From positions 11,722-75,721 of the forward strand of contig DHFM01000046.1 of assembly GCA_002400405.1 (NCBI GenBank): 64,000 nucleotides of DNA, given 5' to 3'. This stretch comes from Candidatus Moranbacteria bacterium UBA4824. GTDB lineage: Bacteria; Patescibacteriota; Minisyncoccia; Moranbacterales; UBA2206. The notes beneath the pieces were generated by a model. It was given only the letters and a program-made list of their open reading frames with translations. It was not told where the DNA came from and ran no database searches. Made by a program: the position numbers and the translations under genes. Below are positions 32-23,757 of the stretch, piece by piece (the first letter of the stretch is position 1; every line of letters starts with the position of its first letter).

Positions 32-1063
32 ATGAAACTAAAAAACATCAACGCGACTCTACTTATATTAGTGGGCTTATTATGTTTAAGCTTAGCTTTT
101 TTTGTGAACGCCACTGAAAACTCCAATGGTACAAAAAACATTTTTCTTGACTCTGATCAAGATGGACTCACTGACGCGGAAGAAAAAACCTATGGCACTA
201 ATCCACAAAAAGCCGACACAGACGGTGATGGATACACGGATGGAGCCGAAGTTAAAGCTGGTTATGACCCGCTAAAAAAAGCCCCCGGTGATAAACTTTC
301 CACTTCTCAAACAGCTAGCGTTAAAGGTGAAAGTGTTTCTGAAAAACAAGTTGTAAGCGAAGAAAAACCCAATCTAACTCAAGAAACAGCGCAAAAAATA
401 TCCACCCTCACAAATGAATCTGCTATCCAAAATCAAGAAATTGGCACAGAAGAAATTCAAACACTTCTCGATTCTATTATGAACGGCGAAGATTTCAAAA
501 ATGAACTACCAGAAATTTCTCCAGATGAGATAAAAATTTTGAAACAAAATTATAGCAGTCTAAGCAAAGAAAAAGCCCAAGAAAAAATGAAAGAAGACGC
601 CGTTAACTATTCTGTGGCCATTCTCTATATTTTTGCCAGCAATTCTCCAGAACCACTCACATCTTCTACTGATGCGATTTCAATTCTAAATAAAACCGTT
701 CAAAAAATTATAACTTCTTTTGCCTCTGGCAATCCGGATGTTCTTAATGATTTAAGCATAAGTGGCGAAAAAATTTATGAACAATTAAAGGAAGTAAAGG
801 TACCGGAAGATATGGTTGATACCCAAATAAAAGCTTTGCAATATGCCTCTTATGCTCAAGATTTGAAAAATTTAATCAAGCTTGATCCGACTGATCCACT
901 GGCTAATTTGTCCAACTATTCCAAAATTTCAACTTTCGTAGGCAGTCTAAATGAATTTTATGATGAAATAAAAAGTAAGTTGGAAAGTTATGGTGTCGAT
1001 TATGGCGAAGTGCAAGATAAATTGGAAGACAAAGGAATTTCCGGAGATATTTTCGGAAGCTAA
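32..1063 (+). CDS. Secreted Asp-rich protein with thrombospondin-type-3-like calcium-binding repeats
   Basis: Long ORF. N-terminal signal peptide (MKLKNINATLLILVGLLCLSLAFFVNA). DxDxDG-type motifs (DSDQDGLTDAEE, DTDGDGYTDGAEV). Otherwise hydrophilic. Confidence 0.5.
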   Translation: MKLKNINATLLILVGLLCLSLAFFVNATENSNGTKNIFLDSDQDGLTDAEEKTYGTNPQKADTDGDGYTDGAEVKAGYDPLKKAPGDKLSTSQTASVKGESVSEKQVVSEEKPNLTQETAQKISTLTNESAIQNQEIGTEEIQTLLDSIMNGEDFKNELPEISPDEIKILKQNYSSLSKEKAQEKMKEDAVNYSVAILYIFASNSPEPLTSSTDAISILNKTVQKIITSFASGNPDVLNDLSISGEKIYEQLKEVKVPEDMVDTQIKALQYASYAQDLKNLIKLDPTDPLANLSNYSKISTFVGSLNEFYDEIKSKLESYGVDYGEVQDKLEDKGISGDIFGS

Positions 1064-1115
1064 GGTATGGCTACAAAATTACAAATTTTTACAAAAATAC
1101 AAAAGTACAAAAAAT

Positions 1116-2129
1116 ATGTTGTTTCGTTTTAGAAATAAACTCTCAAAAATAATATTCACCTTTCTAATATTGGGATTTTTTTGCTTTTCCGGCGCACCAA
1201 AATCTCAAGCAGCTTTTTGGCCAGCAGTTGACCCCGGAATTACCTCCGGTTTGCAAAAAATATTAGATATGGTTAATGGTCTTATCGTTGGCACCCTAAA
1301 ACAGCAAGCTGTGCGAATGCTCAGTATGCAAGTTGATATGTTAGCGGGGAATGGTTCCGGAGGTGAAGCATCTTTTATTGTCCATTGGGAAACTTATTTA
1401 AAAGATGAACCACAAAATGCCACCAACATCTATATGAATGACTACCTCAGTCAAATGACTCTGGGAAGAAACACCTCTTCACTCTATTCTGCCGAAGGTT
1501 TTTCTGGTGGCGCTGGCGGTAGTTATGCGTCACAACTAGGACAACTTAATCAAGTCCTAGCTAATGCAAAAAATCCCAATTCAGTTCCTAAATTGACCTA
1601 TGAAGGCGAACCCTCACAAATGCTTCAAAGTGGCAATTTCAAAAATATGGAACTCTATCTTTCCGGCGTAAATAATCCTTGGAGCTTCAAAATTGCGGTT
1701 AAAAGTGAACAACAAAAAATATACAAAGAAAAACAAAACGAAGCTATGGTAAAAGCTATGGCCTACCAAGGTTTTCGCGGAACTTTAAGCGATGCCAATG
1801 GCTCCATTTCCAATCCCGGAAGTTTAGTCAAGTCGGCTTTGGAAAATGCTCAAGATATGCCTAACAGAATCCTGCAAAGTGCTTCCACCATTCCCGAAGT
1901 AGCCACCGCTCTCGTCACTCAGATGATCAATCAAACCATCACCCAAGGTTTTGTGAGCGTTCGCAATAAAACCGCCAAATCCACCGCCAATGTCACCAAA
2001 TATACCAATGCTACTAATCAAGCTATGAATCAATACGGTCCGGCTGTGAGATTTGGAGCAAATACTGCTCAAGACATTCAAAATAAACAAGCTCAAAAAG
2101 CCCAAGATGACGCAGTGGCGAATCAATAG
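1116..2129 (+). CDS. Hypothetical secreted/membrane-anchored Gly-rich protein (T4SS-locus associated)
   Basis: ORF track gives 990..2129. The internal ATG at 1116 (MLFRF...FLILGFFCFSGAPKSQA) yields a signal peptide and avoids overlap with the upstream gene. Gly-rich segments present. No recognisable family. Confidence 0.4.
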   Translation: MLFRFRNKLSKIIFTFLILGFFCFSGAPKSQAAFWPAVDPGITSGLQKILDMVNGLIVGTLKQQAVRMLSMQVDMLAGNGSGGEASFIVHWETYLKDEPQNATNIYMNDYLSQMTLGRNTSSLYSAEGFSGGAGGSYASQLGQLNQVLANAKNPNSVPKLTYEGEPSQMLQSGNFKNMELYLSGVNNPWSFKIAVKSEQQKIYKEKQNEAMVKAMAYQGFRGTLSDANGSISNPGSLVKSALENAQDMPNRILQSASTIPEVATALVTQMINQTITQGFVSVRNKTAKSTANVTKYTNATNQAMNQYGPAVRFGANTAQDIQNKQAQKAQDDAVANQ

Positions 2130-2139
2130 AATCAAATAA

Positions 2140-2180
2140 TTTTCAAGTTTCAATTCTCAATTTTCAGTGAATTTTCAAAA
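2140..2180. repeat. Repeat family C half-copy (ttttcaagtttcaattctcaattttcagtgaattttcaa)
   Basis: Left arm of family C only. Immediately 5' of the four-helix-bundle gene. Confidence 0.5.
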
Positions 2181-2197
2181 ATAAAATTTTCAAAAAA

Positions 2198-2572
2198 ATG
2201 CCTGATAATAAAAATAAAACATATGATTTAGAAGAAAGAACGGCACTGTTTTCGGAAGAAGTAATAAAACAAATAAAAACAATTCCAATTACTCCAATTA
2301 ATAAATCCATATTATCCCAAATAGTCAGATCAGCAACATCAGTCGGAGCAAATTATTGTGAAGCCAACAATGCCAGCTCTAAAAGTGATTTTAGAAATAA
2401 AATATATATTTGCAAAAAAGAAATTAATGAAACAAAATATTGGCTAAGAATTCTGTCCAACACTAATCCTGAATTTAAAGAAAAAGCCAGAGAACTCTGG
2501 CAAGAAGCGCAAGAATTAAATTTGATTTTTCAGTCAATAGTAAATACGCTAAATGGGAAGAAGAAGAGCTAG
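2198..2572 (+). CDS. Four-helix-bundle protein (23S rRNA intervening-sequence protein family)
   Basis: 124 aa. Hallmark motifs of the family (RSATSVGANYCEAN..S..DF..K..I..KE..ET.YWLRIL). Flanked on both sides by copies of repeat family C. Confidence 0.7.
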   Translation: MPDNKNKTYDLEERTALFSEEVIKQIKTIPITPINKSILSQIVRSATSVGANYCEANNASSKSDFRNKIYICKKEINETKYWLRILSNTNPEFKEKARELWQEAQELNLIFQSIVNTLNGKKKS

Positions 2573-2573
2573 T

Positions 2574-2673
2574 TTGCAATTTTCAAGTTTCAATTTTCAA
2601 TTACCAATGTTTCTAGTTTGAAAATTTATTTATTGAAAATTCATTGAAAATTGAAACTTGTGAATTGAAAATT
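2574..2673. repeat. Repeat family C copy (inverted repeat arms ttttcaagtttcaattttcaat ... attgaaaattgaaacttgtgaattgaaaatt)
   Basis: Arms reverse-complementary over about 20 bp. Half-copy at 2140..2180 on the other side of the four-helix-bundle gene. Full copy at 13386..13503. Confidence 0.6.
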
Positions 2674-2686
2674 TTTTATAATACAC

Positions 2687-4807
2687 ATGCCCCAACAAAC
2701 ACAAAAAAAAACAAATCCCCGCAAAATTTTCCTAACTATCATTTTCATCTTAGTGATTGGTTTTGGTTTTGGGTTTGGGAAAGGAACTGAAGCACTGGCT
2801 GAAAATCTTGGAAGTCCGATACAAGATATCAACACTCTTAAAGAGGCAACTGGTGATGGTAATGCCGATTCCTGTGATTTTTTGTTTCATCCTATAGATT
2901 GCACTCTACTTGCTCTTTTAGATCTTTTTGTAAAGCTAACAACCTTAGCCAGCACTCTTTTCAAATGGATAATGGGACCTAATAATATTTCTTCTATTCT
3001 TAGTAGTAAAGCCATCTATGAAGGCTGGGCTTTGGTACGCGACGCTCTCAATGTTTCATTTATTATGTTTTTGCTTTTTTCCGCGTTTGCTACTGTTTTT
3101 CAAATTGACAAATATAGCTACAAAAAAACTCTTCTCACTATCGTCATTATGGCCTTGCTGGTCAATTTTAGTTTTCCTATTTCTCGTTTCATTATTGATG
3201 TTTCCAATATGATGATGTATTATTTTGCCGATACTCTAAGTATTGGCTCTGACAAAAAAGACATCATTGTTGGTTTTGCCGATATCGCCGATTTACCAAA
3301 CATACTGCATCCAAAAGTAGGCAATGACACAACCAGTCTTTTGGCAGCGGTCGTTTTTGCTTTTATCTTTATGATAACTATGCTCACTATTTCCGTTCTT
3401 TTTGTGATTCGTACTCTCGCCTTGGCAGTTTTGATTATTTTTTCTTCCTTGGCTTTTGTCGGCACGGCTGTTCCACCCCTAGCCAAACATTCCGGCGATT
3501 GGTGGAAAAAACTTTTCGACTATTCTTTTTTTGGTCCGATTATGCTTTTTATGATGTATATCGCCTCTTCTCTTATGAATGAAATTCAAAAAGATGGACT
3601 TATAAATATGACAGAATTATCTATTCAAAATACCAAATCGGGAGCTTATGTTGCTTCGCTGGCCTTTTTCTTTCTTCCAATTATTATCCTTTGGATCGGT
3701 CTCGGCATTGCTAAAGAAATGAGTGGCTCCGCCGGAAGCGCCATCGTCGGCAAAGCACAAGGGTTTATGAAAGGGGCAGGGAAGTGGACGGCGAGTCCAA
3801 TTACTAGTGCATATAAGGCTGGAAAATTTGGTGCTGGCGCATTGGTTAAAAAAATTGATCGTGATCACATCGGCGTTAGAGGATTTATCAAGGCTTGGAA
3901 AGATAGGTCAAGTGAAATCGATACAGATAAAGTTGCTACTCAAGCAGCTAAATCAAGAGATCGCATTAGTAATTTTCCTTTATTTTTCGATAAAGACAAA
4001 AGAGATCCTAATTATTATCGTGATGTTGATGATGCAAATAAAATCGCAAAATACAAAAAAGAACAAGATCTTTATTCCACAACTGATGTTGATTTGGTTG
4101 AAGGTATAAGAAAATTATCTGGGAAAAAAGATACCGAATCTGGACAAAGAATGCAGGCATTTTTTCAGACTTTGGCTGGAAACAAGGATCTTAATGAATT
4201 TGGAAAACTAAAATATGGTTATTTCGATCCAAATTTAACGAAAAACGATATCGCTAACACACTCAGAGAAAGTTTAAATGAAGAAGATGTTGTATCGGCA
4301 ATGCATGACCTTGAAGATATTAATATTATGAATGGTGTTTATTCTATGTATGGATTAACAACAATCGATAAAGAAACAGGAAAAAGAAGATTGACTAAGA
4401 GTAGCACGGAACAGGAAGAAGCTGTTATGGGAAAACTTAAAAATATTGACTATCAGAAGTTTATGATAAATTTCCACCCAGATTCAGTTATAACTGAAGC
4501 TAAGGATGGCAGTCCAACTGGTATTAGTAATATCGGAAAATCTATTTTAGAATATGTAGAATCAAGAGATGCTGAATTTGTATCTAGACTTCGAGGTGAT
4601 GCTAGAGATAAGATAAAAGAAGCCATCAGAATACACGATGAAAAAGCTGAGCCTGCAGATAAAATATCCACAAAAAATCCTGTGCTTATGTTTGAATTAA
4701 GCGGAGGGAAAAAAGGACAAGAGGCTAGAAAAGCAGCTATTTTAGCTAGAGAAGAAGTAAAACAAAAAGAAACTGAGCCTGTAGTTAAGATCAATAGCAA
4801 AAAATAA
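2687..4807 (+). CDS. Polytopic membrane protein, VirB6/TrbL-like candidate, with long hydrophilic C-terminal domain
   Basis: 706 aa. N-terminal signal/TM followed by at least 6 hydrophobic helices in the first ~350 aa, then a charged C-terminal half. Position is in a locus with VirB3/VirB4/pilin homologs. The family assignment is an inference. Confidence 0.35.
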   Translation: MPQQTQKKTNPRKIFLTIIFILVIGFGFGFGKGTEALAENLGSPIQDINTLKEATGDGNADSCDFLFHPIDCTLLALLDLFVKLTTLASTLFKWIMGPNNISSILSSKAIYEGWALVRDALNVSFIMFLLFSAFATVFQIDKYSYKKTLLTIVIMALLVNFSFPISRFIIDVSNMMMYYFADTLSIGSDKKDIIVGFADIADLPNILHPKVGNDTTSLLAAVVFAFIFMITMLTISVLFVIRTLALAVLIIFSSLAFVGTAVPPLAKHSGDWWKKLFDYSFFGPIMLFMMYIASSLMNEIQKDGLINMTELSIQNTKSGAYVASLAFFFLPIIILWIGLGIAKEMSGSAGSAIVGKAQGFMKGAGKWTASPITSAYKAGKFGAGALVKKIDRDHIGVRGFIKAWKDRSSEIDTDKVATQAAKSRDRISNFPLFFDKDKRDPNYYRDVDDANKIAKYKKEQDLYSTTDVDLVEGIRKLSGKKDTESGQRMQAFFQTLAGNKDLNEFGKLKYGYFDPNLTKNDIANTLRESLNEEDVVSAMHDLEDINIMNGVYSMYGLTTIDKETGKRRLTKSSTEQEEAVMGKLKNIDYQKFMINFHPDSVITEAKDGSPTGISNIGKSILEYVESRDAEFVSRLRGDARDKIKEAIRIHDEKAEPADKISTKNPVLMFELSGGKKGQEARKAAILAREEVKQKETEPVVKINSKK

Positions 4808-4812
4808 AATTT

Positions 4813-6081
4813 ATGATTTCATCTATTCTAGAACAACAAATAAAAAACTTTTCACAACTTTCTAATGAAGAATGTGCTTTGATAATTAAAAATAATTTAT
4901 TAGAAGCGTTAGAAAGTGATTTATATATCGACTGGGAAATCGTTGCTAAATTTATTATGACTCCCTATGCTGATAGAGAAGCACTTTGCAAAATTTTAAA
5001 TTCCTCTATTAGAAAAAACATTCAACTAATCGGTAATTTTACCATAAGCGACTGGATTAGAAAATATCAAGATCAGTATTTAGGAAAAGAGAGAAATCCA
5101 AATACATTTTTTGAATATGTTAATAATAATCCTGAGGTTAAAAAATTATCAAAAAAAGATCAATTAAAACTTGCTAGAATTCTAAGGATCTATGATTATC
5201 TTTTAGTTATTCCTATTGCTGACCTTGATGGTCCAGTATCAAATATTTTAAGATTTTCAATGCAATCAGAATCTACGCCTGAAGAAAAATTAGCACAGAG
5301 TAAATCTGAAAACCTAGACCAATTTATTCCGCAAAAAATAACTCTTGAAAAACTATCAATTTCTGAAGCGCTGAAAAAATTCCCTGAAATCGGCGAACAA
5401 CTTATCACCTCAACACATATCAAACTCAAAAGTTTTCCAGAGCCTGTTCGACCATCAATCAATAATTGGCTTTCTGACTACACTTTCAATCTAGGTTTTG
5501 AATCACATAGCGCCATGGATCGCGGGACATATTTGTTCCGCAATGAAAATGCCAAAGTTTTGAACTCAACTGACCGCGAAAAAATTTCCTATATTTTAAA
5601 AGCCTACGATGAAAATTCGTTGGTAGATGTGAATGTCAACACTAAACAAGTTGTTTTTCCAAAACGCGAGCAAGCTAAAATAATTTCCAATTTCTCCGCC
5701 AAAGGCGGATCCGCCTCGGGCGGACAATATCCAATATCCAATAAAATTTCTAATAATGAAATTTCCAATATCAAAACTCCTACAAAAAGTCAATTCCAAG
5801 AAATATATAATGCAAAAAAACAAACAGAACAACCAAAAGATATCTTCAAAGAAGAAAGAATTGCCACAGAAAACAGAAATGCAGGCAATATAAATTTCAG
5901 CTCTCCACAAAGAATGCCCTATGAAAAACAAACCATCCAGCCAATTCAACCCCAAAAACCAGCCCCAGCCCCCCAACCAATGCGAATTTCCTCGCAAAAC
6001 CTCCGAAATAATAGTGATAAACCCCGAACCAATCCTAATGTGCCAACAGGAAACATAGTTAATTTAAAAGACAAACAATAA
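4813..6081 (+). CDS. Hypothetical protein with Pro/Gln-rich C-terminal tail (T4SS-locus associated)
   Basis: 422-aa ORF 6 nt after the VirB6-like gene stop. No TM segments. C-terminal low-complexity region (QPIQPQKPAPAPQPM). Confidence 0.4.
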   Translation: MISSILEQQIKNFSQLSNEECALIIKNNLLEALESDLYIDWEIVAKFIMTPYADREALCKILNSSIRKNIQLIGNFTISDWIRKYQDQYLGKERNPNTFFEYVNNNPEVKKLSKKDQLKLARILRIYDYLLVIPIADLDGPVSNILRFSMQSESTPEEKLAQSKSENLDQFIPQKITLEKLSISEALKKFPEIGEQLITSTHIKLKSFPEPVRPSINNWLSDYTFNLGFESHSAMDRGTYLFRNENAKVLNSTDREKISYILKAYDENSLVDVNVNTKQVVFPKREQAKIISNFSAKGGSASGGQYPISNKISNNEISNIKTPTKSQFQEIYNAKKQTEQPKDIFKEERIATENRNAGNINFSSPQRMPYEKQTIQPIQPQKPAPAPQPMRISSQNLRNNSDKPRTNPNVPTGNIVNLKDKQ

Positions 6082-6187
6082 TCAGAACCACTGATTATCA
6101 CATGAGCTCACTTGATTTCACTGAACAGAAATTTCATTCATGTGTAATCAGTATAATCAGTGCTAATCAGTGGTTCAGACATTTATG
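6079..6187. repeat. Repeat family D copy 1 (about 105-bp structured intergenic leader 'cagaaccactgattatcac...taatcagtggttcagacatttATG')
   Basis: Near-identical to 6584..6693, with 2 substitutions. Fills the whole intergenic space from the stop codon to the ATG of the next gene. Internal inverted repeats (aaccactgatta / taatcagtggtt). Confidence 0.7.
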
Positions 6188-6583
6188 CTATTTAATGTGC
6201 CACAATTCATCGACATCGAAGACAAGATTGTCGGTCCGCTCACAGCCAAACAACTTGGCTGGCTTGGAATTGCTGGTGTTTTACTCTTGATTTTTTGGAG
6301 CACTCTGGTTTTTTCAACTTTTGTCCCTGTCGCTCTCATCACCTTGGCAATTTTTGGCGCCTTGGCCTTCTACCGACCCTACAACCAACCCCTTTTAAAT
6401 TTTCTAATGTCTGGTGTTAATTTTTTTATGAAGCCCAAGGTCTATGTTTGGAAACGATTTTATGATAATATAAAAACAGTCAACCGAACACCACAAAAAC
6501 CTAAAGAAGAAATTATCGTTAAGAGAAAAGTTTTAGATAATGAAAAAATTAGAGAATTGACGGAAAGACTAAATAGAAAATAA
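6185..6583 (+). CDS. PrgI family / VirB3-like small membrane protein
   Basis: About 132 aa. Motif F.VP..I...DKI.GPLTAKQL followed by two TM helices, typical of PrgI/VirB3-like proteins. The ORF-track GTG start at 6170 lies inside repeat D, so ATG 6185 is preferred. Confidence 0.55.
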   Translation: MLFNVPQFIDIEDKIVGPLTAKQLGWLGIAGVLLLIFWSTLVFSTFVPVALITLAIFGALAFYRPYNQPLLNFLMSGVNFFMKPKVYVWKRFYDNIKTVNRTPQKPKEEIIVKRKVLDNEKIRELTERLNRK

Positions 6584-6693
6584 ATAATCAGAACCACTGA
6601 TTATCACATGAGCTCACTTGATTTCACTGAACGGAAATTTCGTTCATGTGTAATCAGTATAATCAGTGCTAATCAGTGGTTCAGACATTTATG
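6584..6693. repeat. Repeat family D copy 2
   Basis: Direct repeat of 6079..6187, again running from a stop codon to the next ATG. Confidence 0.7.
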
Positions 6694-7377
6694 GAAATAT
6701 TACACTCAAAAAAACTCTCCACCGAACCATCATCTTCGCCAACGCAGAAGTATTTGGATGTGGCGGAGGTTAAAGATGATACGATTATCTTGAAATCAGG
6801 CGCGCTTCGCTCTGTTTTAGCTGTGTCAGCCATCAATTTTGATTTGAAATCCACCGATGAACAAACAGCCATCATCAACCAATACCAAAATTTTCTCAAT
6901 TCTGTGGATTTTCCCATTCAAATACTTGTGAGCTCGCGAAAACTGGATATGCGAACTTATTTCGACTATATAACCAGCAAAGAAAAAACCCAACACAGTG
7001 AATTGCTTCGGATGCAGTTGGCAGAATACAAAAATTTCATTGAACAACTCGTGAGTGGTTCCAATATTATGGAAAAAAATTTCTATATTATCGTGCCTTT
7101 TTCTCCGATTGAGAATAAGGATAAAGGATTTTTTTCTAATATCGGGAGTCTAATGAATCCGCAAAAAAATATTATTGAAAAAAACACCAATTTTGAAACT
7201 TACAAAAACCAGCTTTTTCAAAGAGTTGACCATATCATCGCCGCTCTTTCCGGCATTGGACTACGCATCGCCCCGCTCAAAACCGAAGAACTGATTGAAC
7301 TATTATTCAATTCATATAACCCGGAAATTTTCAACGCATCAGAATTGAAGGATGTGGAGAAATTAGAATTACAATAA
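6691..7377 (+). CDS. virB4: VirB4/TrbE-family protein, N-terminal fragment (split gene, part 1)
   Basis: DDTIILKSGALRSVLAVSAINFDLKSTDEQ matches the conserved N-terminal segment of Gram-positive-type VirB4 (PrgJ/TcpF-like). Ends at a stop 92 nt before the ATPase-part ORF. Confidence 0.55.
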   Translation: MEILHSKKLSTEPSSSPTQKYLDVAEVKDDTIILKSGALRSVLAVSAINFDLKSTDEQTAIINQYQNFLNSVDFPIQILVSSRKLDMRTYFDYITSKEKTQHSELLRMQLAEYKNFIEQLVSGSNIMEKNFYIIVPFSPIENKDKGFFSNIGSLMNPQKNIIEKNTNFETYKNQLFQRVDHIIAALSGIGLRIAPLKTEELIELLFNSYNPEIFNASELKDVEKLELQ

Positions 7378-7379
7378 AA

Positions 7380-7445
7380 TTTACGAAAATACGAATCTAG
7401 CGAAAGTACGAATTCGTAATTTAGTTTAATTCGTATTTTCGTAAA
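7380..7445. repeat. Repeat family A copy (66-bp element with perfect 17-bp terminal inverted repeats tttacgaaaatacgaat/attcgtattttcgtaaa and central palindrome tacgaattcgta) separating the two VirB4 ORFs
   Basis: Terminal inverted repeats confirmed by reverse-complementing. Near-identical copy at 63549..63614. Related TACGAAT arrays at 21939, 37855 and 52368. Confidence 0.65.
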
Positions 7446-7468
7446 TAATAAAACACAAAAAAACATCC

Positions 7469-9286
7469 ATGTTTAATTTTCTTAAAAAAAACCCAACCAC
7501 CCAAGCCAAGACCAATGAAATTCTTGAGGGTGAAAAATACTATCAAGAAGGTGTTTCGCGACTCAATGATCTTTTGGCTCCCTCTGCGATAAAAATAATG
7601 CCGAAATTTATCCGTGTGGGAGAAACACTGGCGCAAACTATTTTTGTGGTGGCTTATCCGAGATTTCTCAATAGCAATTGGTTCTCTCCGATTATAAACA
7701 TTGATTTACCAATTGACATTTCGATGTTTATCCACCCAATTGAAACTTACGACATCTTGAAAGATCTCAAAAAAAATGCCACCAGAGTTGAATCACAAAT
7801 TCATATCGAACAAGAAAAAGGTATGATTCGCGATCCCGCCCTTGAAACTGCCATCCAAGATATTGATGAACTGCGAAGCAACTTACAACAAGGCACCGAA
7901 AAATTCTTTCGTTTTGGACTCTATATCACTGCTTACGGCGAAAATGAAAAAGAACTTTCTGATATTACTCGCTCAATCGAAGCAATTCTAGAAGCCCAAT
8001 TAGTCTATGTAAAACCAGCAATTTTCAAGTCTGAACAAGGCTTTAATTCAACTTTGCCGTTAGCTAACGACGAACTAGACATAGGATCGAGCATGAACAG
8101 CGCTCCGCTTTCCACCACTTTTCCTTTTGTTTCTTCCACTCTATCTTCCAATGAAGGAATTCTTTATGGAATAAATCGTCACAACAACAGTTTGATTATT
8201 TTTGACCGCTTCAAAATGGAAAATGCCAATATGGTGGTTTTTGCCAAATCCGGTGCTGGAAAAAGTTATACTATAAAGCTGGAAGTTTTGCGCTCTTTGA
8301 TGATGGGCACTGATGTGATTATTATCGACCCAGAAAATGAATATAAGCATCTTTGTGAAACAGTGGACGGAACCTTTGTTAAAATTTCTCTTAATTCCAA
8401 CAATCACATCAACCCTTTTGACTTGCCTCACATCAAAGAAGATGAGGATCCGGAAGATGTACTGCGAAACAACATTGCCAATTTACTTGGATTGCTTCAC
8501 ATCATGCTGGGCAACATTACTCCTGAAGAAGATTCCATTTTAGGTCGAGCTATCAAAGAAACCTATGCTGTTCGTGATATCTCCGCTGAAACTAATTTCA
8601 ATTCTCTTAACAAAGAATCCTACCCAACAATGTCTGATCTCTATCAAATCTTGCGCAGTATGGATGGTGGAGAAAACTTGGCTATTCGCATGGAAAAATA
8701 TACCGAGGGAATTTTTTCCGGCTTCTTGAATAATTCTACTAATGTGAGCGTTGACAATCCAATGATGGTTTTCAATATCCGCGATATGGAAGAGGAACTT
8801 CGACCGATTGCTATGTATATGGTAATGCAATTTATCTGGAATGAAATGAGAACTACGCTCAAGCGAAGATTAGTTTTGGCTGATGAAGCTTGGGTAATGA
8901 TGAAATATGATGACGCCGCTTCTTTTCTTTTTGGAATTGCCAAACGATGTCGAAAATATTATACCGGGCTCACTACCGTCACTCAAGATGTGAATGACTT
9001 TTTGAGCTCTCGTTATGGCAAGGCCATTGTCACCAACTCCTCTATTCAATTACTTTTAAAACAATCTCCCGCAGCTGTGGATGTAATTAGCGAAACATTC
9101 TATCTCACCGACCAAGAAAAATTTCTTCTCTTGGAATCAAATGTGGGAGAAGGAATTTTTTTCGCCGGCACCAACCACGTTGCCATCAAAGTTGTAGCTT
9201 CCTATTCCGAAGATCAAATCATCACCACTGATCCAGCCCAGATGCTGGAAATTGAAAAAGCGAAGAAAGAATTTAGTGAAGAATAA
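7469..9286 (+). CDS. virB4: VirB4/TrbE/CagE-family conjugation ATPase, central and C-terminal part (split gene, part 2)
   Basis: 605 aa. Walker A (VVFAKSGAGKSYT), Walker B (RLVLADEAWVMM). The N-terminal region (YPRFLNSNWFSPIINIDLPIDISMFIHP) is typical of VirB4. Confidence 0.8.
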   Translation: MFNFLKKNPTTQAKTNEILEGEKYYQEGVSRLNDLLAPSAIKIMPKFIRVGETLAQTIFVVAYPRFLNSNWFSPIINIDLPIDISMFIHPIETYDILKDLKKNATRVESQIHIEQEKGMIRDPALETAIQDIDELRSNLQQGTEKFFRFGLYITAYGENEKELSDITRSIEAILEAQLVYVKPAIFKSEQGFNSTLPLANDELDIGSSMNSAPLSTTFPFVSSTLSSNEGILYGINRHNNSLIIFDRFKMENANMVVFAKSGAGKSYTIKLEVLRSLMMGTDVIIIDPENEYKHLCETVDGTFVKISLNSNNHINPFDLPHIKEDEDPEDVLRNNIANLLGLLHIMLGNITPEEDSILGRAIKETYAVRDISAETNFNSLNKESYPTMSDLYQILRSMDGGENLAIRMEKYTEGIFSGFLNNSTNVSVDNPMMVFNIRDMEEELRPIAMYMVMQFIWNEMRTTLKRRLVLADEAWVMMKYDDAASFLFGIAKRCRKYYTGLTTVTQDVNDFLSSRYGKAIVTNSSIQLLLKQSPAAVDVISETFYLTDQEKFLLLESNVGEGIFFAGTNHVAIKVVASYSEDQIITTDPAQMLEIEKAKKEFSEE

Positions 9287-9292
9287 TATTCT

Positions 9293-9784
9293 ATGTACGA
9301 TACCCAAAAAAAACAAGAGTTAGAAAATAATCAGCAAGAAGCTCGTGAGCAAAAAGAAGCCCAGAAAAAAGAACAAGCCGAAAAAAATGCCTTGTCTTTT
9401 GAAAATTTAAAAAAACCGAAAAAAAAATCTCGCTTTTCTCAAATTAAAAAATCCGATCCGGTTTTTGCTGTTGCCTTTATGGCCGCAGGACTAAAGGACT
9501 TGCTTGACCTTTTTCAAGCCACAGGAGTGGGGTATGCTATAGTGATTATTATGACTATTTTGATTTTTATCTTTATCGGATTTATGATAATGATCGGGGT
9601 TTCTATGGGCGGAGGTGGGGGGATAAATATACTGCTGATGCTTTTTGGCGGAACCGCCGTGGAAATTCTCCCTGGGATAAGTTTTTTGCCAATGACTATG
9701 GGATTAGTAGCTATGATATATTTATCAGTTTTGAAAAAAAGAAAAAAGAATGCTCAAAAAATTCAAGAACAAAACTACGCCTAA
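9293..9784 (+). CDS. Small membrane protein (charged N-terminus, C-terminal TM helices), T4SS-associated
   Basis: 163-aa ORF 7 nt after virB4. K/E/Q-rich N-terminus, then 2-3 hydrophobic helices with a Gly-rich loop. Confidence 0.4.
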   Translation: MYDTQKKQELENNQQEAREQKEAQKKEQAEKNALSFENLKKPKKKSRFSQIKKSDPVFAVAFMAAGLKDLLDLFQATGVGYAIVIIMTILIFIFIGFMIMIGVSMGGGGGINILLMLFGGTAVEILPGISFLPMTMGLVAMIYLSVLKKRKKNAQKIQEQNYA

Positions 9785-9945
9785 ATAGTGGACTTACACA
9801 TTTTCCTGAAAATCTATTTACATAGCCAGTGCAATGCTAGGATTACAACTAAGTAACCTCTGTCTTTAATCTTAGTTTTATCTTTTGGTAATTTCAGCGA
9901 ATAATAGATTTGAAGGAAGATGCGTAAGTCCTATAACAATAAATA

Positions 9946-10614
9946 ATGCGCTATTATCACAAAAGAAAATTGTCCACTCGCTTAGTCGAGAATAAAGAAA
10001 CTGCCATTACTTTCTTGGTGATTGTTTTTTGCCTGTTTTTGTCTATTTTTTTCCCTGCACAAAACTCTATTCAACTTATTACTAAAAACATTTTCTTTCT
10101 AATTATCGTTCCAATTCTTTATTATAAGCTAATCCTCAAAAAAAATATTTCTGATTTCGGTCTAACTTTGGGCGACAAAAAATCCGGAATTTTTTGGGGA
10201 GTATCGATGTTTTTAGTCACCATTTTGACTTTTTTTCTACTCTATTCCTATACGGATTTCAAAAAAAATTATCTACTTTCATCTTATGTCGTCCATAATT
10301 TCTGGATTTTTTTGCTTTATGAGCTTATTGTCGCCAATTTATTTGTTTTTATTCAAGAATTTTTTTGGCGAGGATTTATTTTGCTTTATTTTTCCAAAAA
10401 AATCAACTCTCTTGCAATTTTTTTGCAATTTATTATTTTCATATTAATTGCAATTCCAATAGAGAATTCCTTTTGGCAGATGGCGCCGACTCTCGTAATT
10501 TCTCTATTTTCTGGTATAATAGTTTATAAGAGTCGCTCTATTTTCTATTCTTGGCTCTCAGCTCTGTTTTCACTGATAATTTTAGACAGTTTTATAATTT
10601 ATCATCTAAAATGA
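9946..10614 (+). CDS. CPBP-family (CAAX-protease-like) intramembrane metalloprotease
   Basis: 222 aa, multi-TM. Motif QEFFWRG (EExxxR-like) and FIIYH (FxxxH). Stop overlaps the ATG of the next gene (ATGA). Confidence 0.45.
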   Translation: MRYYHKRKLSTRLVENKETAITFLVIVFCLFLSIFFPAQNSIQLITKNIFFLIIVPILYYKLILKKNISDFGLTLGDKKSGIFWGVSMFLVTILTFFLLYSYTDFKKNYLLSSYVVHNFWIFLLYELIVANLFVFIQEFFWRGFILLYFSKKINSLAIFLQFIIFILIAIPIENSFWQMAPTLVISLFSGIIVYKSRSIFYSWLSALFSLIILDSFIIYHLK

Positions 10615-13379
10615 AAAATCAAAAGTTCAAAAAAAATCAATTTTTCTTCAATATTATACTTGTTGCTGTTTTCTTTTTTTCTCAAACTGGAATAGTTCAA
10701 GCAATTTCCGTTGACAATGTTATGGGAGTTAAATCTCCTCCTAATTTTTTGGATTCTATACTGGATGGTTATGGGATAGATAAAAATAAAGTCAAACAAC
10801 AAGCTCAAATTCTTAATTATGAAGATCAAAAAAAAGCTGCGCCCCAAGTTTCACTTTTCTTTGTTCCTGCTAATCCGGATGAGGGAGAAAAAATAACCGT
10901 AACCGCTTCGCCAACATATTTCATGAATGATCCCAAAGATCTATATTACACTTGGTTTTTAAAAAGCAAAGATTGCACTGACAAAAAATCAGATGATGAA
11001 AAATATTCCTATAATTCAAATTGCGACCTAAATAACGATGGGGAAGTTGATATAAAAGATTATAAAATAAAAGCCACAAGAATCATTGTTAATGGAGGCT
11101 TTATTATAAGTTCCGATGATATCTATAAATCATCCTCTGATAACGACGGCTATACGGCTTCTTCTGGTGGTAATGATCAAAAAGAAAAAATTCCTCATTG
11201 TTATATTCGCAATATAACCTCAGGCAAGGAATATGAGATTGATTGTACCAACGAAGAAGATAGTCATTTGTTTCCTCGTGCTGAATTTGAAAATTTTGTT
11301 GATTATAAGGGAAACGAAATAGATCTAGATAAACCAACCGGTGATGGAGATTTTGGCAGAGATGAAGAAAAATTTTGGCATACTGATCCTAACAGCAATG
11401 ATACGGCCAATCTGGGTCATCCTGACGAAGCTAATGTAACCGGTTTAGGAGTTACTAGTTTTACTTGGAGTTACCAAAAAGGCGACAAAGTTGGAGTAGC
11501 GGTAGAGGGAGTTTCCACTGAACCACCACCAACAGATGATTCTTCTTATAAAACCACCTGGGCAATGAATGAGGTAGTAGGTGATTTTGATGCTGATTTT
11601 ACTAATGATGATTATCCACAAACAACTGATGAAATTATCTCTACCACAATTGATCCATCTGAACCTACGCAAACGATTTATTTAACCAAAACAACTCTCC
11701 GAGAAATTGATGGCGAGGTTATTGATGGCATAGGCAATATCAAAATTACTGAAACAATGCACAATGTCGTGAGAGTCACTGCTACTCAAGTTTTGGTAAG
11801 TGACACTAATGTAGCTGAAACTGAAGAAACTCCCAATCCAATTATCACTTATTCTACGGCTTCCTTTTCCTCTGACGATTTTGAACTTGATGATGGCAAA
11901 ATAGAAAAACCATCCGATCTTGATGAATTTTTATACGACTCATTGGTTTCTCCCCAAGAAAACAGTGCTGGAAGCAACAAGCTTGATATTAACCTTTCTT
12001 TTTATCCTAACAACCCCATGAATGATCCGGCTGGAATTTCTGGAGATGGGGACATACTTACCATCCATTCTTCCATTTCCAATGCTAAAGACACTAATTA
12101 TCTACAATACGATTGGAAAGTTTTTGCTGGAGCGGATATTAGTTCTGATGTGTGGGGTGAACCCCTTCTAAAAAAAGATCTATTAGAATCAACTCAATCA
12201 GTTGGCTTAGGAATTGATACTTTTAAATTCAAATTAGGCTTTTCTGATCCTGATACAGTCAAGTTTCTCAAGGTTGTTTTAACTGTCACGGAAAACACCG
12301 GAGAAGAGCATCCTCGTAAAAACACTCAGGATGTTATTATACCGATTAATTCCACTACGGAAAAAATTAAAGTGTCTAATGTTTCAATGACAGACTTAAC
12401 CGACCCCGCTGTTGATCCAAATAATTTATCTCGAGTAAAACTTACTCAAGGAGATGAAATTTGCAACTCTAATGATTTGGAAAAAGCTCTTTGCGCTGTG
12501 GCTAAAAATCAAATTATCGCAATTTCTGTTCCAAAAGATAATTTTGAAGACACTGCCGCTAATAATCCCGATTTTCTTTGGACAATTGACGGCAAACCCT
12601 TTTCCTATCCCTATTGTTTTTTTGAAGATTGTAAGGAGGAAAAGCAAACTTACGTGGCGTATTTCCCAATTCTCAAGGAAGTTGGTGAACAATATTCTAT
12701 AAATTTAACCGCTACCAATGAAGATGGAGAGAAAATAAATTTAACCCGAAATTTCAAAGTAGTTGATCCGGAAATTACCATTATTTCCGACGACACAAAA
12801 AATTGCGATCAAGTTATGCTAGGGGAGTATTTTGATGTCAATGGTCAATCATTTCCTGATTTAAGTCAACTTAATTTTTGGGCTTATACTAATTCCCCTA
12901 TAAAATTGCGAGTTGCCCTGACCGGTTTTTCTGTTTTACCGGAAAATTTAAGTTGGCAAGTTGATAATAACTCTATAAATTCATCCAATGCTGGTGTTTA
13001 TAATTTTAATATTGATAATACTGGAATTCTAACTTTACCTCCCAAAGAAAAACAAGGGGAAAGCTATAATATCTCAGTTGGTACGCTTTATACGCAAAAT
13101 AATTTAGCCAAAAAAGCCCTTAACGCTATTTGGGGAGTGACGTACAATCAATTTTATGAAAAAATCGTCTCTGATGATGCTATTATCACCATGCAAGACG
13201 CCCCAACCACCACTGCTAGTAAAAAATCAAAAAAAATATTCGCCACTATCTATTCATCCACTCCCGCCTATCTAGCTTTTCTTCTGCGAATAGTTCTCAC
13301 AATTTCTCTGATTCTGTTTATAACTAAATTGATTTTTTCATTTTCTCCGGAGACTATTTCGAGAGAAGAAGACTACTAA
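10611..13379 (+). CDS. Large secreted Asp-rich surface protein with C-terminal membrane anchor
   Basis: About 922 aa from ATG 10611. Signal peptide (FFFNIILVAVFFFSQTGIVQA). Many D/N/T-rich and Cys-pair segments. C-terminal hydrophobic anchor (AYLAFLLRIVLTISLILFITKLIF). Confidence 0.45.
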   Translation: MKNQKFKKNQFFFNIILVAVFFFSQTGIVQAISVDNVMGVKSPPNFLDSILDGYGIDKNKVKQQAQILNYEDQKKAAPQVSLFFVPANPDEGEKITVTASPTYFMNDPKDLYYTWFLKSKDCTDKKSDDEKYSYNSNCDLNNDGEVDIKDYKIKATRIIVNGGFIISSDDIYKSSSDNDGYTASSGGNDQKEKIPHCYIRNITSGKEYEIDCTNEEDSHLFPRAEFENFVDYKGNEIDLDKPTGDGDFGRDEEKFWHTDPNSNDTANLGHPDEANVTGLGVTSFTWSYQKGDKVGVAVEGVSTEPPPTDDSSYKTTWAMNEVVGDFDADFTNDDYPQTTDEIISTTIDPSEPTQTIYLTKTTLREIDGEVIDGIGNIKITETMHNVVRVTATQVLVSDTNVAETEETPNPIITYSTASFSSDDFELDDGKIEKPSDLDEFLYDSLVSPQENSAGSNKLDINLSFYPNNPMNDPAGISGDGDILTIHSSISNAKDTNYLQYDWKVFAGADISSDVWGEPLLKKDLLESTQSVGLGIDTFKFKLGFSDPDTVKFLKVVLTVTENTGEEHPRKNTQDVIIPINSTTEKIKVSNVSMTDLTDPAVDPNNLSRVKLTQGDEICNSNDLEKALCAVAKNQIIAISVPKDNFEDTAANNPDFLWTIDGKPFSYPYCFFEDCKEEKQTYVAYFPILKEVGEQYSINLTATNEDGEKINLTRNFKVVDPEITIISDDTKNCDQVMLGEYFDVNGQSFPDLSQLNFWAYTNSPIKLRVALTGFSVLPENLSWQVDNNSINSSNAGVYNFNIDNTGILTLPPKEKQGESYNISVGTLYTQNNLAKKALNAIWGVTYNQFYEKIVSDDAIITMQDAPTTTASKKSKKIFATIYSSTPAYLAFLLRIVLTISLILFITKLIFSFSPETISREEDY

Positions 13380-13385
13380 AAAATT

Positions 13386-13503
13386 TCCAAGTTTCAAGTT
13401 TCAATTTTCAATGAATTTTCAATATAAAAATTTTCAAAATTAAAGATATTGTAAATTGAAAATTAATCATTCACTGAAAATTGAGAATTGTAAATTGAAA
13501 ATT
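13386..13503. repeat. Repeat family C copy (inverted-repeat element, arms 'caagtttcaattttcaat' / 'attgaaaattga')
   Basis: Same arms as 2574..2673 and the half-copy at 2140..2180. Intergenic between the surface protein and the pilin gene. Confidence 0.6.
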
Positions 13504-13517
13504 AAAATAAAATTCCC

Positions 13518-14492
13518 ATGAAATTCACAAAAACAAAAATAATATTTCTACTTTTATTATTCATCAATTTGATTCCTGTTTTTTGTTTGGCTCAAACTTA
13601 TAAGCCAATGGAAGGAATTCCGGGGTTTATTACTCCCGGTCAAGATGTTAATTTTCCAGATTATTTAATGGCGATCTATAAATTCGGTCTTTGGGCGATT
13701 GGAATTTCGGCCGTTTTTATGATTATGATCGGTGGCTATATGTATCTCACTTCCGCTGGCAATAACGCCCAAACCGGCAAAGCCAAAGGAATCATCACCG
13801 ACGCTATTGCGGGAGTTATCTTAGCGCTAGTGTCCTATCTTCTTCTCTACACCATCAATCCAGAACTGGTTCAATTCAAACCGCTTAATGGAATAACCTC
13901 ATCTACGTCTTCATCTTCTGGAACAGGTACAGGAGGCAGTGGAGGCAGCACTGACGGCACAGATAAATACTACAAAAAAGCTTGTCCAGATACATCTTCA
14001 ACCTCTCCAATTGTTTTTTCTGGAGCTACTGATATTAACTTAAATCATGATTGTGATAAATATGATTCTCTTTTTAATTCTTATGGACAACAATATCAAA
14101 TTGATCCTAAAATATTAAAAACAATCGCTCAAATAGAGTCGATTTGCGGAAAATTAACAAAAAGCGACGCCGGAGCCTGTGGATTAATGCAACTCATGGA
14201 AGATACCGCACATAAAACTTGCGCTGAATTACTAGCCAGCGACGCTTTATCCGTAGAATCAGCCGCCAAATACATAAGCAATAACAAATCTGCGCACGGA
14301 GGAAATGTTGAAAAAATTCTAGCTGGATATAATAGTGGTTATGCAACAACCGGAACTGGAGGGCTTGCACCAAGCGAAGATTGCAAAAGCACGCCCGGAA
14401 CCCTAAAATATCAATGTTGCGTAAAGCCCGACGAACTCGATGAAACAATTGGATATGTTTGGAAAGGTATGGGAGTAATGAAAAAACAATAA
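13518..14492 (+). CDS. CPR-type T4SS pilin (TrbC/VirB2-like) fused to a C-terminal lytic transglycosylase (SLT/VirB1-like) domain
   Basis: Signal peptide. Pilin core (LWAIGISAVFMIMIGGYMYLTSAGN...AKGIITDAIAGVILALVSYLLLYTINP). Ser/Gly-rich linker. C-terminal segment with family-1 lytic transglycosylase motifs (IAQIES, GLMQL, AGYNSGY). Confidence 0.6.
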   Translation: MKFTKTKIIFLLLLFINLIPVFCLAQTYKPMEGIPGFITPGQDVNFPDYLMAIYKFGLWAIGISAVFMIMIGGYMYLTSAGNNAQTGKAKGIITDAIAGVILALVSYLLLYTINPELVQFKPLNGITSSTSSSSGTGTGGSGGSTDGTDKYYKKACPDTSSTSPIVFSGATDINLNHDCDKYDSLFNSYGQQYQIDPKILKTIAQIESICGKLTKSDAGACGLMQLMEDTAHKTCAELLASDALSVESAAKYISNNKSAHGGNVEKILAGYNSGYATTGTGGLAPSEDCKSTPGTLKYQCCVKPDELDETIGYVWKGMGVMKKQ

Positions 14493-14510
14493 TTTTTTAA
14501 AAAATTTATT

Positions 14511-14987
14511 ATGCTCACTAAATTAAAAATCACAATTTTTTTGTTATTCATCGGAATCTTTTTGCCAATTTTTTCTGCCAATGCCGGCCTTGTTCCTTGC
14601 GGACTAAGCAATGATGATTCATCAACTCCAAATATTAAAGAGGATCAGCCTTGCACGCTTTGTCATTTGATTATTGGGATACAGAATATCGTTTCCTTTG
14701 GCTTGAAATTGCTCATCACTGTGGCCGCGGTGGGAATTTTCATTTCCGGAGTAATGTATATCATTTCTTCCGGTAGTGAAGAAATGATGAAAAATGCTAA
14801 AGCCTTTCTCACTGCCAGCCTCACAGGTTTCACCATCACGCTAATGGCTTGGTTTTTTGTTTATACCGTAATGTGGATTCTTTCCGCCGATCCGGAATCG
14901 ATAACCGATCCTAATGAAAAAGTTCTCATAGAACGCAAAGCTTGGAATAAGTTCGAATGTAGCACAGAAAGTTCCGCCCTAAAATAA
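14511..14987 (+). CDS. CPR-type T4SS pilin (TrbC/VirB2-like)
   Basis: 158 aa. Signal peptide, conserved LVPCG and C..C motifs, two hydrophobic helices (VAAVGIFISGVMYIISSG / ASLTGFTITLMAWFFVYTV). Confidence 0.6.
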   Translation: MLTKLKITIFLLFIGIFLPIFSANAGLVPCGLSNDDSSTPNIKEDQPCTLCHLIIGIQNIVSFGLKLLITVAAVGIFISGVMYIISSGSEEMMKNAKAFLTASLTGFTITLMAWFFVYTVMWILSADPESITDPNEKVLIERKAWNKFECSTESSALK

Positions 14988-15003
14988 TAAACAAATAGAA
15001 AAA

Positions 15004-16161
15004 ATGTCTACTCTCAAGAAAATATTCTTTCTTTCCCTTTTTATCTTTTTTCTTTCCCTGCTTTTTTGGGGAATTTATGTTTTGTCTTTTAAAAAAACCG
15101 AACCGACTAAAAATACTATTCTCCCGCTAAATAATTCCAATAGTAATTTAACTTTACCAGAAAAAATTTCCCCTGCCTCAAGCACACAAAAAATTTCCTT
15201 AGTCTCAAAGGAGCCTGTTATTTCCCCAACAATTTCATCTAATGGAGGAAATATTCGATACTACTCAACTTCCGGAGAACTGAAAGAAACTGATTTTTCC
15301 GGCAGTACTTCAAAAAAAATAACTGATAAAACTATTTTTGGCCTAATAAGCGGAGTTTGGTCACCGGACAAATCAAAAATTCTCCTAAAAACCAAAAAAG
15401 GCGCTAGTCCATATTTTTTGCTTTTTGACACCAAAACCAATCAGCTCACTATGCTCAACAGTAATATCAATGAAATTTCTTGGCAGACCATATCCTCTAA
15501 AATATTCTATAAGTATTTTGATTCAAATGGAAAAAAGAGCTCTCTAAATGTTTCTGATGCCAATGGGGAAAATTGGAAAAAAATAATTGACTTGCCTCAT
15601 GAAAAAATATCCTTTGCTCAAATTCCTCGTTCAGGACTGGTTTCTTTTTGGAATAATGGCGATGCTAATTATCAAACCAATCTTCAAACAGCCTCCCTTA
15701 TCGGAGAAGATATTAAAACTATCTACCAGAGCGGTTTTGGCGCTGATTATCTTTGGGATAATTCCGGCAATCATTGTTTGGTGAGTCAAACGGACACTAA
15801 GGGTGGCACAAAATTACAGCTTGGCATTATAAATTATAACGGCGAAGGCTACAAAATTCTTGGATTGCCTACGATTGTTTCAAAATGTACTTGGTCAAAA
15901 GACAATGCAACCATTTATTGTGCTCTTCCAGGAAACATTCCCGAAAATTCAATCTTGCCCAATGATTATAAGACTGGAAAATTTACCACTGTCGATACTT
16001 TTTGGAAAATTAACACTGATACTGGCGAAAAAACTCGTTTAGTAGAAACCAGCGACATCTCCCAAGACTTTGATGCTTCTGAATTTTTTCTCAATACCGA
16101 CGAAAGCTTGCTATTTTTTGTGAATAAAATAGATAAGAAGTTATATAAAATAATCCTTTAG
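15004..16161 (+). CDS. Membrane-anchored protein with TolB-like beta-propeller-like repeats
   Basis: 385 aa. N-terminal TM. Repeated segments reminiscent of TolB/WD-like blades (SWSPDKSKILL; SDANGENWKKI). Weak assignment. Confidence 0.3.
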   Translation: MSTLKKIFFLSLFIFFLSLLFWGIYVLSFKKTEPTKNTILPLNNSNSNLTLPEKISPASSTQKISLVSKEPVISPTISSNGGNIRYYSTSGELKETDFSGSTSKKITDKTIFGLISGVWSPDKSKILLKTKKGASPYFLLFDTKTNQLTMLNSNINEISWQTISSKIFYKYFDSNGKKSSLNVSDANGENWKKIIDLPHEKISFAQIPRSGLVSFWNNGDANYQTNLQTASLIGEDIKTIYQSGFGADYLWDNSGNHCLVSQTDTKGGTKLQLGIINYNGEGYKILGLPTIVSKCTWSKDNATIYCALPGNIPENSILPNDYKTGKFTTVDTFWKINTDTGEKTRLVETSDISQDFDASEFFLNTDESLLFFVNKIDKKLYKIIL

Positions 16162-21934: not shown

Positions 21935-21938
21935 ACAC

Positions 21939-23753: not shown

Positions 23754-23757
23754 AAAT

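Follow-up and report, generated by a model that had tools for sequence, protein, structure and literature searches.

Dispersed palindromic hairpins fill stop-to-start junctions of a type IV secretion-like operon in a Candidatus Moranbacteria genome

The Correia (NEMIS) elements of Neisseria and the enterobacterial repetitive intergenic consensus sequences (ERIC, also called intergenic repeat units, IRU) are intergenic palindromes of 100–150 bp that resemble miniature inverted-repeat transposable elements (MITEs) and carry conserved terminal inverted repeats. They are co-transcribed with the flanking genes and occur in operons; Correia elements duplicate a TA target and are found in both orientations, and their hairpins have been reported as RNase III substrates that alter mRNA stability. 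At the intercistronic RNase III sites of the phage T7 early region, cleavage produces separate messages, with a 3' stem left behind as protection. In Coxiella, the intervening sequence (IVS) is a selfish hairpin with an S23p open reading frame (ORF) in its loop; it also has tandem heptamer repeats that vary in number, and is excised by RNase III without re-ligation (PMC4990558). The rRNA genes of Candidate Phyla Radiation (CPR) bacteria carry 23S_rRNA_IVP ORFs and, at IVS sites, short ORF-less insertions other than introns (PMC11270868). Here we describe an element of 105 nt that occurs twice in a type IV secretion system (T4SS)-like operon of Candidatus Moranbacteria bacterium UBA4824. The portion of this genome that we examined, henceforth referred to as the window, is a stretch of 64 kb (positions 11,722 to 75,721 of contig DHFM01000046.1), and the closest relatives of its PrgI protein carry the name Candidatus Moranbacteria (CPR). 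The reading that we favour, as a reasonably probable one, is that the element is an ORF-less copy of a dispersed family of palindromic intercistronic hairpin cassettes of the CPR (Paceibacteria/Moranbacteria), non-autonomous, folded out of the message and probably clipped by RNase III. Our literature search found no description of these CPR hairpins.

The two copies (henceforth copy A and copy B) align without gaps over 106 columns (6079–6184 with 6585–6690) and differ at only two of them, columns 49 and 58, both with A in copy A and G in copy B, in agreement with the initial annotation, which had described a sequence of about 105 nt present twice with two a/g differences. With flanks included, the repeat search of the window returned the pair as 122 nt at 95% identity. 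The coordinates also agree with the claim that the repeat spans the whole spacer from stop codon to the next ATG: copy A extends from directly behind the TAA (6079–6081) of a 422-aa ORF to the ATG of a PrgI-family gene at 6185, and copy B from 3 nt behind the stop of that gene (6581–6583) to the ATG of a TraC-like gene at 6691, the 3' tail being CAGACATTT, followed by the ATG. The extended stem-loop proposed at the outset is what folding returned, i.e. a single long imperfect hairpin with a stem of about 40 bp in each copy (copy A, -35.9 kcal/mol, z -4.66, 0 of 200 dinucleotide shuffles; copy B, -43.1 kcal/mol, z -7.67 against dinucleotide shuffles), and where copy A has A.C mismatches, the two A-to-G differences give copy B a C-G and a G-C pair in its apical stem. 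The element has a GC content of 34–36% and is built of tandem words of 9–10 nt, ACCACTGATTA, TCACATGAGCT, CACTTGATTT and CACTGAA in the 5' arm and TTCATGTG, TAATCAGTA, TAATCAGTGC and TAATCAGTGG in the 3' arm. At the base of the stem TCAG-AACCACTGATTA pairs with TAATCAGTGGTT-CAGA, leaving a single A.A mismatch by which the two ends of the element can be told apart. The third, partial copy reported for the window does exist, and is better described as a plus-strand half element that consists of the 5' arm only (48638–48679); this half form recurs in other genomes as well.

A pattern search recovered both basal arms on 66 metagenome contigs, the pattern having fixed the inner 12 nt of each arm so that only the outer bases are an independent observation. 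True copies are present in metagenome-assembled genomes of Paceibacterota, Parcubacteria and Moranbacteria. A 15-mer scan of genome contigs was too unspecific (116 hits, mostly chance), and CPR loci alone were used. A covariance model built from the two window copies gave 142 hits, both strands counted, among them copies that the pattern had missed, and located three family copies within 10 kb in L163 and likewise in L175. No match to the element was found in viral contigs (IMG/VR pattern scan) or by BLAST against phages and plasmids. The genes on either side are diverse, e.g. infB/rbfA (IF-2 and RbfA), eno/gpmI, a membrane protein gene and gyrB, the gamma and delta genes of PFOR, an ABC ATPase/permease/permease set, atp genes (ATP synthase), pilB/pilC and recG. 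The proposal that the element organises T4SS genes does not survive this distribution, the same family lying between many unrelated gene pairs in other CPR genomes; the behaviour of a cassette junction, also suggested at the outset, does hold, i.e. a structured element fills the whole stop-to-start spacer and recurs elsewhere.

In every retrieved copy the terminal inverted repeats (16 nt) are invariant, while the interior is variable yet self-complementary, with words of about 10 nt of the form CACnTGATTn in one arm and nAATCAnGTG in the other. Conserved terminal inverted repeats are a mark of MITEs, and here TCAGAACCACTGATTA and TAATCAGTGGTTCAGA are invariant in the 24 aligned copies. The family has a strict polarity along the direction of the upstream gene, with the layout stop codon, TCAG, AACCACTGATTA ... 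TAATCAGTGGTT, CAGACAnnn, ATG; all 23 distinct copies with an asymmetric base follow the order stop (TAA or TAG), 0–5 nt, TCAG-AACC...GGTT-CAGAC(A)nnn-ATG. The neighbouring gene pairs around all hits were co-directional in 40 cases, convergent in 12 and divergent in 2, which places the element always 3' of a gene. As the tail CAGA(C/T)nTTT is kept even where no gene follows, it must be counted as part of the element. Solo arms (n = 6, in different genomes) are all 5' arms, and the five outside the window stand directly behind a stop codon.

Comparison of orthologous junctions among relatives provides the history of the spacers. In five strains, the coding sequences of three genes (82–90% identical in DNA) are collinear up to the stop and again from the ATG on, and the spacer at orthologous junctions is a different cassette in each strain. 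In L002 each of the three junctions holds a TACGAA hairpin, and in L003 an AT-only hairpin is followed by three copies of a TTACGAA hairpin of its own. The series in L007 is a TACGAA hairpin, a diverged AATCAG element (85% identical to copy B) and a further TACGAA variant. Hairpins of TGATCATTG words are present in L006, where junction 1 is taken by a PF05635 gene and junction 3 measures only 4 nt. Apart from these strains, L190 has yet another hairpin family at three junctions plus an ORF-bearing copy. Three more distant relatives are hairpin-free, with TAA-T-ATG, TAAATG, TAA-ATTC-ATG and TAA-ATT-ATG in L191 and junctions of 7–30 nt in L192 and L193. These tight junctions imply that the hairpins are derived insertions into tight, presumably coupled junctions, and insertion at such sites explains the apparently exact stop-to-ATG extent. 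Hairpins within one locus are far more alike than hairpins at the same junction in different strains. TACGAA hairpins, including those of the window, L002 and L007, are 92–98% identical between strains and the flanking genes 82–88%; the hairpins being more alike than the genes around them, recent spread is indicated rather than vertical drift. Because L007 shares copy B at 85% identity, copy B, at the PrgI/TraC junction, is probably the older of the two window copies, and copy A would then probably be a recent short-range copy of it (98% identity) into the neighbouring junction. The junction that holds copy A carries a TACGAA hairpin in two sister strains.

These junctions bear directly on the leader or attenuator for T4SS genes that the initial annotation had considered. 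A dedicated cis-regulatory RNA (leader, attenuator or riboswitch-like) that controls PrgI and VirB4 would account for a strongly structured element that takes up the 5' side of both genes exactly to the ATG. However, the family also sits between unrelated gene pairs in other genomes, the orthologous junctions of L191–L193 are without it and the sister strains have unrelated hairpins in its place, so that the comparative sequence data essentially rule out a T4SS-specific leader. Neither does it belong to a known RNA family at gathering score: Rfam gave no match in the whole window at gathering thresholds, and a permissive scan near the element (E up to 10) gave sub-threshold chance hits alone, e.g. 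SNORD103 with 18 bits against a threshold of 45. Scans for tRNA and tmRNA found none, a terminator scan of both copies (6082–6184 and 6584–6690) found nothing, a promoter scan gave neither a signal at the element nor any enrichment of promoters, and no alternative pairing or terminator/antiterminator layout was seen there. The GC-rich stem followed by a U-tract of an intrinsic terminator or attenuator is lacking. Altogether, we regard control of the two T4SS genes by such an RNA as very improbable.

A guide RNA was also considered and rejected. TIGR (tandem interspaced guide RNA) systems are long tandem arrays next to a gene for a Nop-domain Tas protein, with box C/D motifs and K-turns around spacers of 8–12 nt (PMC12045711). 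The copies described here are single and dispersed between housekeeping genes, within the stem their CUGA and UGAU words form Watson-Crick pairs along their full length, and the Pfam scans of the window gave no Nop-domain hit.

The two copies are not the only hairpins of the operon. Long hairpins stand at six junctions of this single plus-strand operon; they belong to at least three unrelated word families, start 1–4 nt behind a stop and end 5–22 nt ahead of the next ATG (Table 1). The two TACGAA hairpins of the window, 56 kb apart, are 93% identical. Canonical terminators with a stem and a T-run do exist elsewhere in the window (e.g. 30739–30814). Most window genes lack a Shine-Dalgarno motif and have A/T-rich leaders, and the missing motif after the hairpins is therefore nothing special.

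Table 1. Hairpin cassettes and adjoining genes of the window (positions are those of the window).
Feature	Position	Strand	Remarks
TTTCAA-family 5' arm (2130-2197) and PF05635 (23S rRNA IVS protein) gene (2198-2572)	2130-2572	+	ORF-bearing form of a hairpin cassette
TTTCAA-word hairpin cassette	2573-2686	+	Downstream of the 23S_rRNA_IVP gene
422-aa ORF, no Pfam match	4813-6081	+	TAA stop abuts copy A
Copy A, AATCAG-word hairpin cassette	6082-6184	+	Hairpin 6082-6179, tail CATTT 6180-6184, PrgI ATG at 6185; covariance model 126.5 bits
PrgI-family (VirB3-like) gene, 132 aa	6185-6583	+	Flanked by copies A and B
Copy B, same AATCAG-word cassette	6584-6690	+	Hairpin 6588-6685, tail CATTT, TraC-like ATG at 6691; covariance model 131.8 bits; pairing of the apical stem better than that of copy A
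TraC-like N-terminal part of VirB4, 228 aa (PF26593)	6691-7377	+	Starts directly behind copy B
TACGAA-word hairpin cassette (hairpin 7379-7446)	7378-7468	+	Between the two VirB4 ORFs; second copy at 63548-63636
Intercistronic hairpin, 161 nt, -46.7 kcal/mol	9785-9945	+	Same operon
ORF-less TTTCAA-word hairpin cassette	13380-13517	+	Arms match those around the IVP gene
Half element, 5' arm only (TCAG-AACCACTGATTA-TCACTGATTA-TACTGATTTCACTGAA), then an A-rich run	48638-48679	+	Non-coding stretch

Hairpins at six junctions of one operon could be taken as punctuation selected by the host because it sets the relative expression of neighbouring cistrons, acting on the upstream gene as a 3' stabiliser or partial terminator (as for repetitive extragenic palindromic (REP) sequences) or serving as a processing site, with spread being secondary. 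Such a role would suit elements that lie without exception 3' of a gene and hardly ever in a divergent promoter region, whose half forms stand directly behind stop codons and whose termini are strongly conserved. It fits poorly with relatives that function with junctions of 0–4 nt, with families that are interchangeable at one junction, with the lack of a U-tract where canonical terminators are at hand elsewhere in the window, and with pairing that has no sense-strand bias (see below), and we judge it unlikely. Another possibility is a bridge for translational coupling, in which the stem joins stop and ATG, or masks the start until a terminating ribosome melts its base, and coupling is thereby kept across 100 nt. 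The fixed geometry (stop 0–5 nt ahead of the stem, ATG 6–14 nt after the GGTT of the 3' arm), the ancestral junctions of the type TAA(0–4 nt)ATG or TAAATG and a genome mostly without Shine-Dalgarno sites are what such a bridge would call for; yet other families in the same operon leave tails of 10–22 nt before the ATG, and copies at convergent gene ends have no downstream gene to couple. This makes the bridge distinctly unlikely as the main explanation.

Some cassettes carry a gene. In L190 a PDDEXK_3 gene sits between the same 5' and 3' arms as the ORF-less hairpins of that locus. The PF05635 gene of the window is preceded by a TTTCAA 5' arm nearly identical to that of the hairpin at 13380–13517 and followed by a full TTTCAA hairpin. 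Arms of GCGAAT words enclose the PDDEXK_3 genes of L003 and L006, and small GIY-YIG ORFs lie between GTCATCCTGA arms, although GC-rich contigs from outside the CPR and genes that lie between two palindromes confounded the generic screen for genes between complementary arms, which is a pointer to GIY-YIG only. As a separate observation, the PF05635 gene of the window encodes a 23S rRNA IVS protein (bAvd-like), and related ORFs (PF05635, PDDEXK_3) are found at different junctions of the same operon in L003, L006, L190 and L192.

Taken as a dispersed hairpin cassette, the element resembles MITEs in its spread and rRNA IVSs in its architecture. We are near certain of what is directly observed, i.e. 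the family, its terminal repeats and polarity, its absence from distant relatives and the swapping of families at one site. The mechanism that we propose is that the cassette spreads by short-range copying and between strains and survives solely in stop/start junctions, where it would persist as nearly harmless because its stem of about 40 bp folds 100 nt out of the co-transcribed mRNA, so that the stop of the upstream gene comes to lie next to the ATG of the downstream one at the base of the stem. RNase III would probably cut this stem, as it does the stems of rRNA IVSs and the intercistronic hairpins of phage T7, so that the operon mRNA is split at gene borders and the downstream cistron is left with an A/U leader of 5–10 nt. 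These RNA steps are tentative, with somewhat less than even odds of being correct. Mobilisation is probably in trans by small nucleases; PDDEXK_3, GIY-YIG and also S23p-type genes sit in the loops of sister cassettes. A wider generalisation would be a CPR class of 'intercistronic IVS' cassettes, with autonomous members (a PDDEXK_3, GIY-YIG or S23p-type ORF in the loop) and ORF-less ones, homing into stop/start junctions and into rRNA, whose removal by RNase III would routinely yield near-leaderless monocistronic mRNAs; we put it forward as a doubtful but possible extension.

How far the fold is kept across the family was assessed by alignment. A plain MAFFT alignment with RNAalifold showed an invariant basal stem only and no covariation, and was replaced by a covariance-model alignment. 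Self-complementarity is maintained: in the model-guided alignment 92.8% of cells were paired and 38 of the 39 pairs had changed on both sides, the structure thus being conserved in relatives, and none of 500 shuffles paired as well, with slid controls at 25–43% paired.

Several observations weigh against the cassette interpretation or parts of it. The covariation alignment was itself fitted to the structure, contains both strands and has its basal stem fixed by the search pattern. Mean folding energy is practically the same for sense and antisense (-38.6 and -40.4 kcal/mol, with 21 and 27 G.U pairs, respectively), and such equal folding means that nothing favours selection on an RNA over a DNA palindrome. 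Several copies even score higher on the antisense strand with the window-derived model, as would be seen if the interior had been turned round with respect to the termini. An ORF-bearing version with AATCAG arms was not found, no distant arm pair enclosing an ORF in the retrieved loci. The 64 kb of the window contain no transposase, RAYT or RNase III gene, and Y1_Tnp gave no hit in the approximately 50 window ORFs scanned, i.e. nearly all of the long ones. No copy lies inside an rRNA gene in the retrieved loci, two weak motif hits being chance (there is no rRNA in L145 or L171). A target-site duplication, as expected of a MITE, is not visible when filled junctions (TAA|element|ATG) are compared with empty ones (TAA-T-ATG, TAAATG); the TCAGA...TCAGA repeat is constant across loci and hence part of the element, not a target duplication. 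Copy A may have replaced a TACGAA hairpin or entered an empty site, both of which fit the star-like strain tree. Finally, RNase III cleavage and mobility are steps that we infer.

The strand symmetry of the pairing also raises the possibility of an element that acts as DNA, its words of about 10 bp binding a protein (a nucleoid protein, recombinase or nuclease) on the duplex or on a cruciform, with transcription irrelevant. A word period of 9–10 nt, close to one helical turn, the flipped interiors and the recurrence of solo 5' arms with three direct words would all be at home in such a scheme. The termini, however, are strictly polar relative to the direction of the upstream gene, the window copies have plus orientation on both sides of the origin, which makes their polarity independent of replication, and no candidate binding protein was identified. 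We hold a purely DNA-level role to be improbable.

Several further observations concern the operon and the rest of the window. VirB4 is encoded by two ORFs, the TraC-like N-terminal part and an ATPase part of 605 aa (7469–9286). The TACGAA hairpin between them was considered as the cause of this split and rejected, since all relatives examined have the two-ORF layout, even with a gap of 4 nt. The PrgI homologues P0006, P0008 and P0010 have 139 aa, i.e. 7–8 aa more at the N-terminus, and the annotated PrgI start of L006 lies upstream of the conserved ATG, within spacer sequence; the 139-aa calls probably come from start codons called inside an inserted spacer. GGAG-like sites precede only a handful of window genes, e.g. 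at 38607, 53780 and 56908 (minus strand) and at 48880. The origin region (22129–26937) comprises a minus-strand group of jag/khpB, yidC and rnpA together with plus-strand dnaA and dnaN, and contains the minimum of the cumulative GC skew, near 25 kb; the T4SS-like operon (32–16161, plus strand) is therefore transcribed head-on to replication.

Other repeats are scattered along the window. A 34-nt sequence, CTTACGAATTACGAATTAGTACGAATGTACGAAT, is present twice with 100% identity (21938–21971 and 52367–52400), each time directly upstream of the ATG of a minus-strand gene (20519–21934 and 49334–52363); it matches one arm of the L003 hairpin family and is thus a solo arm beside a start codon. At 48264–48377 and 49215–49328, two palindromic repeats of AT-only AATTTTTAATTTT words (82% alike) bracket an island of 0.85 kb. 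The island contains an 83-aa ORF (48880–49131) with a strong Shine-Dalgarno site, the AATCAG half element and about 500 nt with neither an ORF nor a match in Rfam; the AT-only family of the two repeats also fills junction 1 in L003. A GC-rich mini-hairpin of the type CCCGCCTCG...CGAGGCGGG is nested in AT-rich word hairpins in three genomes (window 37089–37197, L003 9094–9243, L190 7169–7249), and has the appearance of another mobile palindrome, smaller than the word hairpins and inserting into them. Between tsaE and a cyclophilin gene there is a GTCATCCTGAACAAGTTTTCAGGAT hairpin (54750–54805), with a motif that also makes up the arms on either side of small GIY-YIG ORFs in the CPR loci L023, L174 and L127. 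Genes of toxin-antitoxin or abortive-infection type (AbiEii twice, AbiEi, zeta toxin and Fic) cluster at 28146–29559 and 38378–43483, and repeats of 138 nt (38378–38515 with 40268–40405) and 54 nt (39216–39269 with 40884–40937) lie within this cluster.

CPR genomes are small (about 1 Mb) and dense, yet this lineage tolerates hairpins of 100–160 nt at many junctions, six of them in one operon. The hairpins mark junctions that were presumably once translationally coupled, change quickly through copying and exchange among close strains, and link ORF-less elements to small unexplained families (S23p/PF05635, PDDEXK_3, GIY-YIG) and to rRNA IVSs. If the stems are RNase III sites, they would give insight into how operon mRNA is processed and translated with few Shine-Dalgarno sites in organisms that cannot yet be grown alone; if the intercistronic IVS class is real, it would provide S23p/PF05635 and PDDEXK_3 proteins with a function and a mobility mechanism and explain the origin of rRNA IVSs. 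On the practical side, such repeats can mislead start-codon annotation and confuse assembly and motif-discovery pipelines.

Among the described systems, the 23S rRNA IVSs of Coxiella burnetii, Leptospira and Salmonella have much in common with the cassettes: both are selfish insertions that fold into a hairpin, the two ends pairing as a long stem, and occur either with a small S23p/PF05635 ORF in the loop or without one (in the window this is the case of the sister TTTCAA family, and none was seen with AATCAG arms), both have tandem word repeats of the heptamer type, variable in copy number, in their arms, and both occupy sites where a loss of RNA continuity is harmless. IVSs, however, reside in 23S rRNA helices 25 or 45 and the element between protein-coding cistrons; IVSs have no counterpart to the stop/start polarity, and cleavage of the element is putative. 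Correia and ERIC sequences share with it the imperfect palindrome with conserved terminal inverted repeats and the location inside operons. Unlike Correia, the element has no target duplication, is fixed in orientation and fills the stop-to-ATG spacer, its arms consist of words in tandem, and families without relation to one another, several in number, replace each other at a single site. REP sequences, bacterial interspersed mosaic elements (BIMEs) and REPINs with their RAYT (PMC3116915, PMC3333891) are likewise extragenic palindromic repeats, often 3' of operon genes, and a REPIN is, like the element, a non-autonomous hairpin of about 100 nt, made of two inverted REPs; REPs differ in being short, GC-rich and dependent on a REP-flanked RAYT gene, whereas the element is AT-rich and word-structured and no RAYT was found in the window. 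The phage T7 sites, hairpins between cistrons of a polycistronic mRNA, are a model for the proposed tolerance, although they are unique, non-repeated and shorter, have a defined internal loop and are not mobile repeats.

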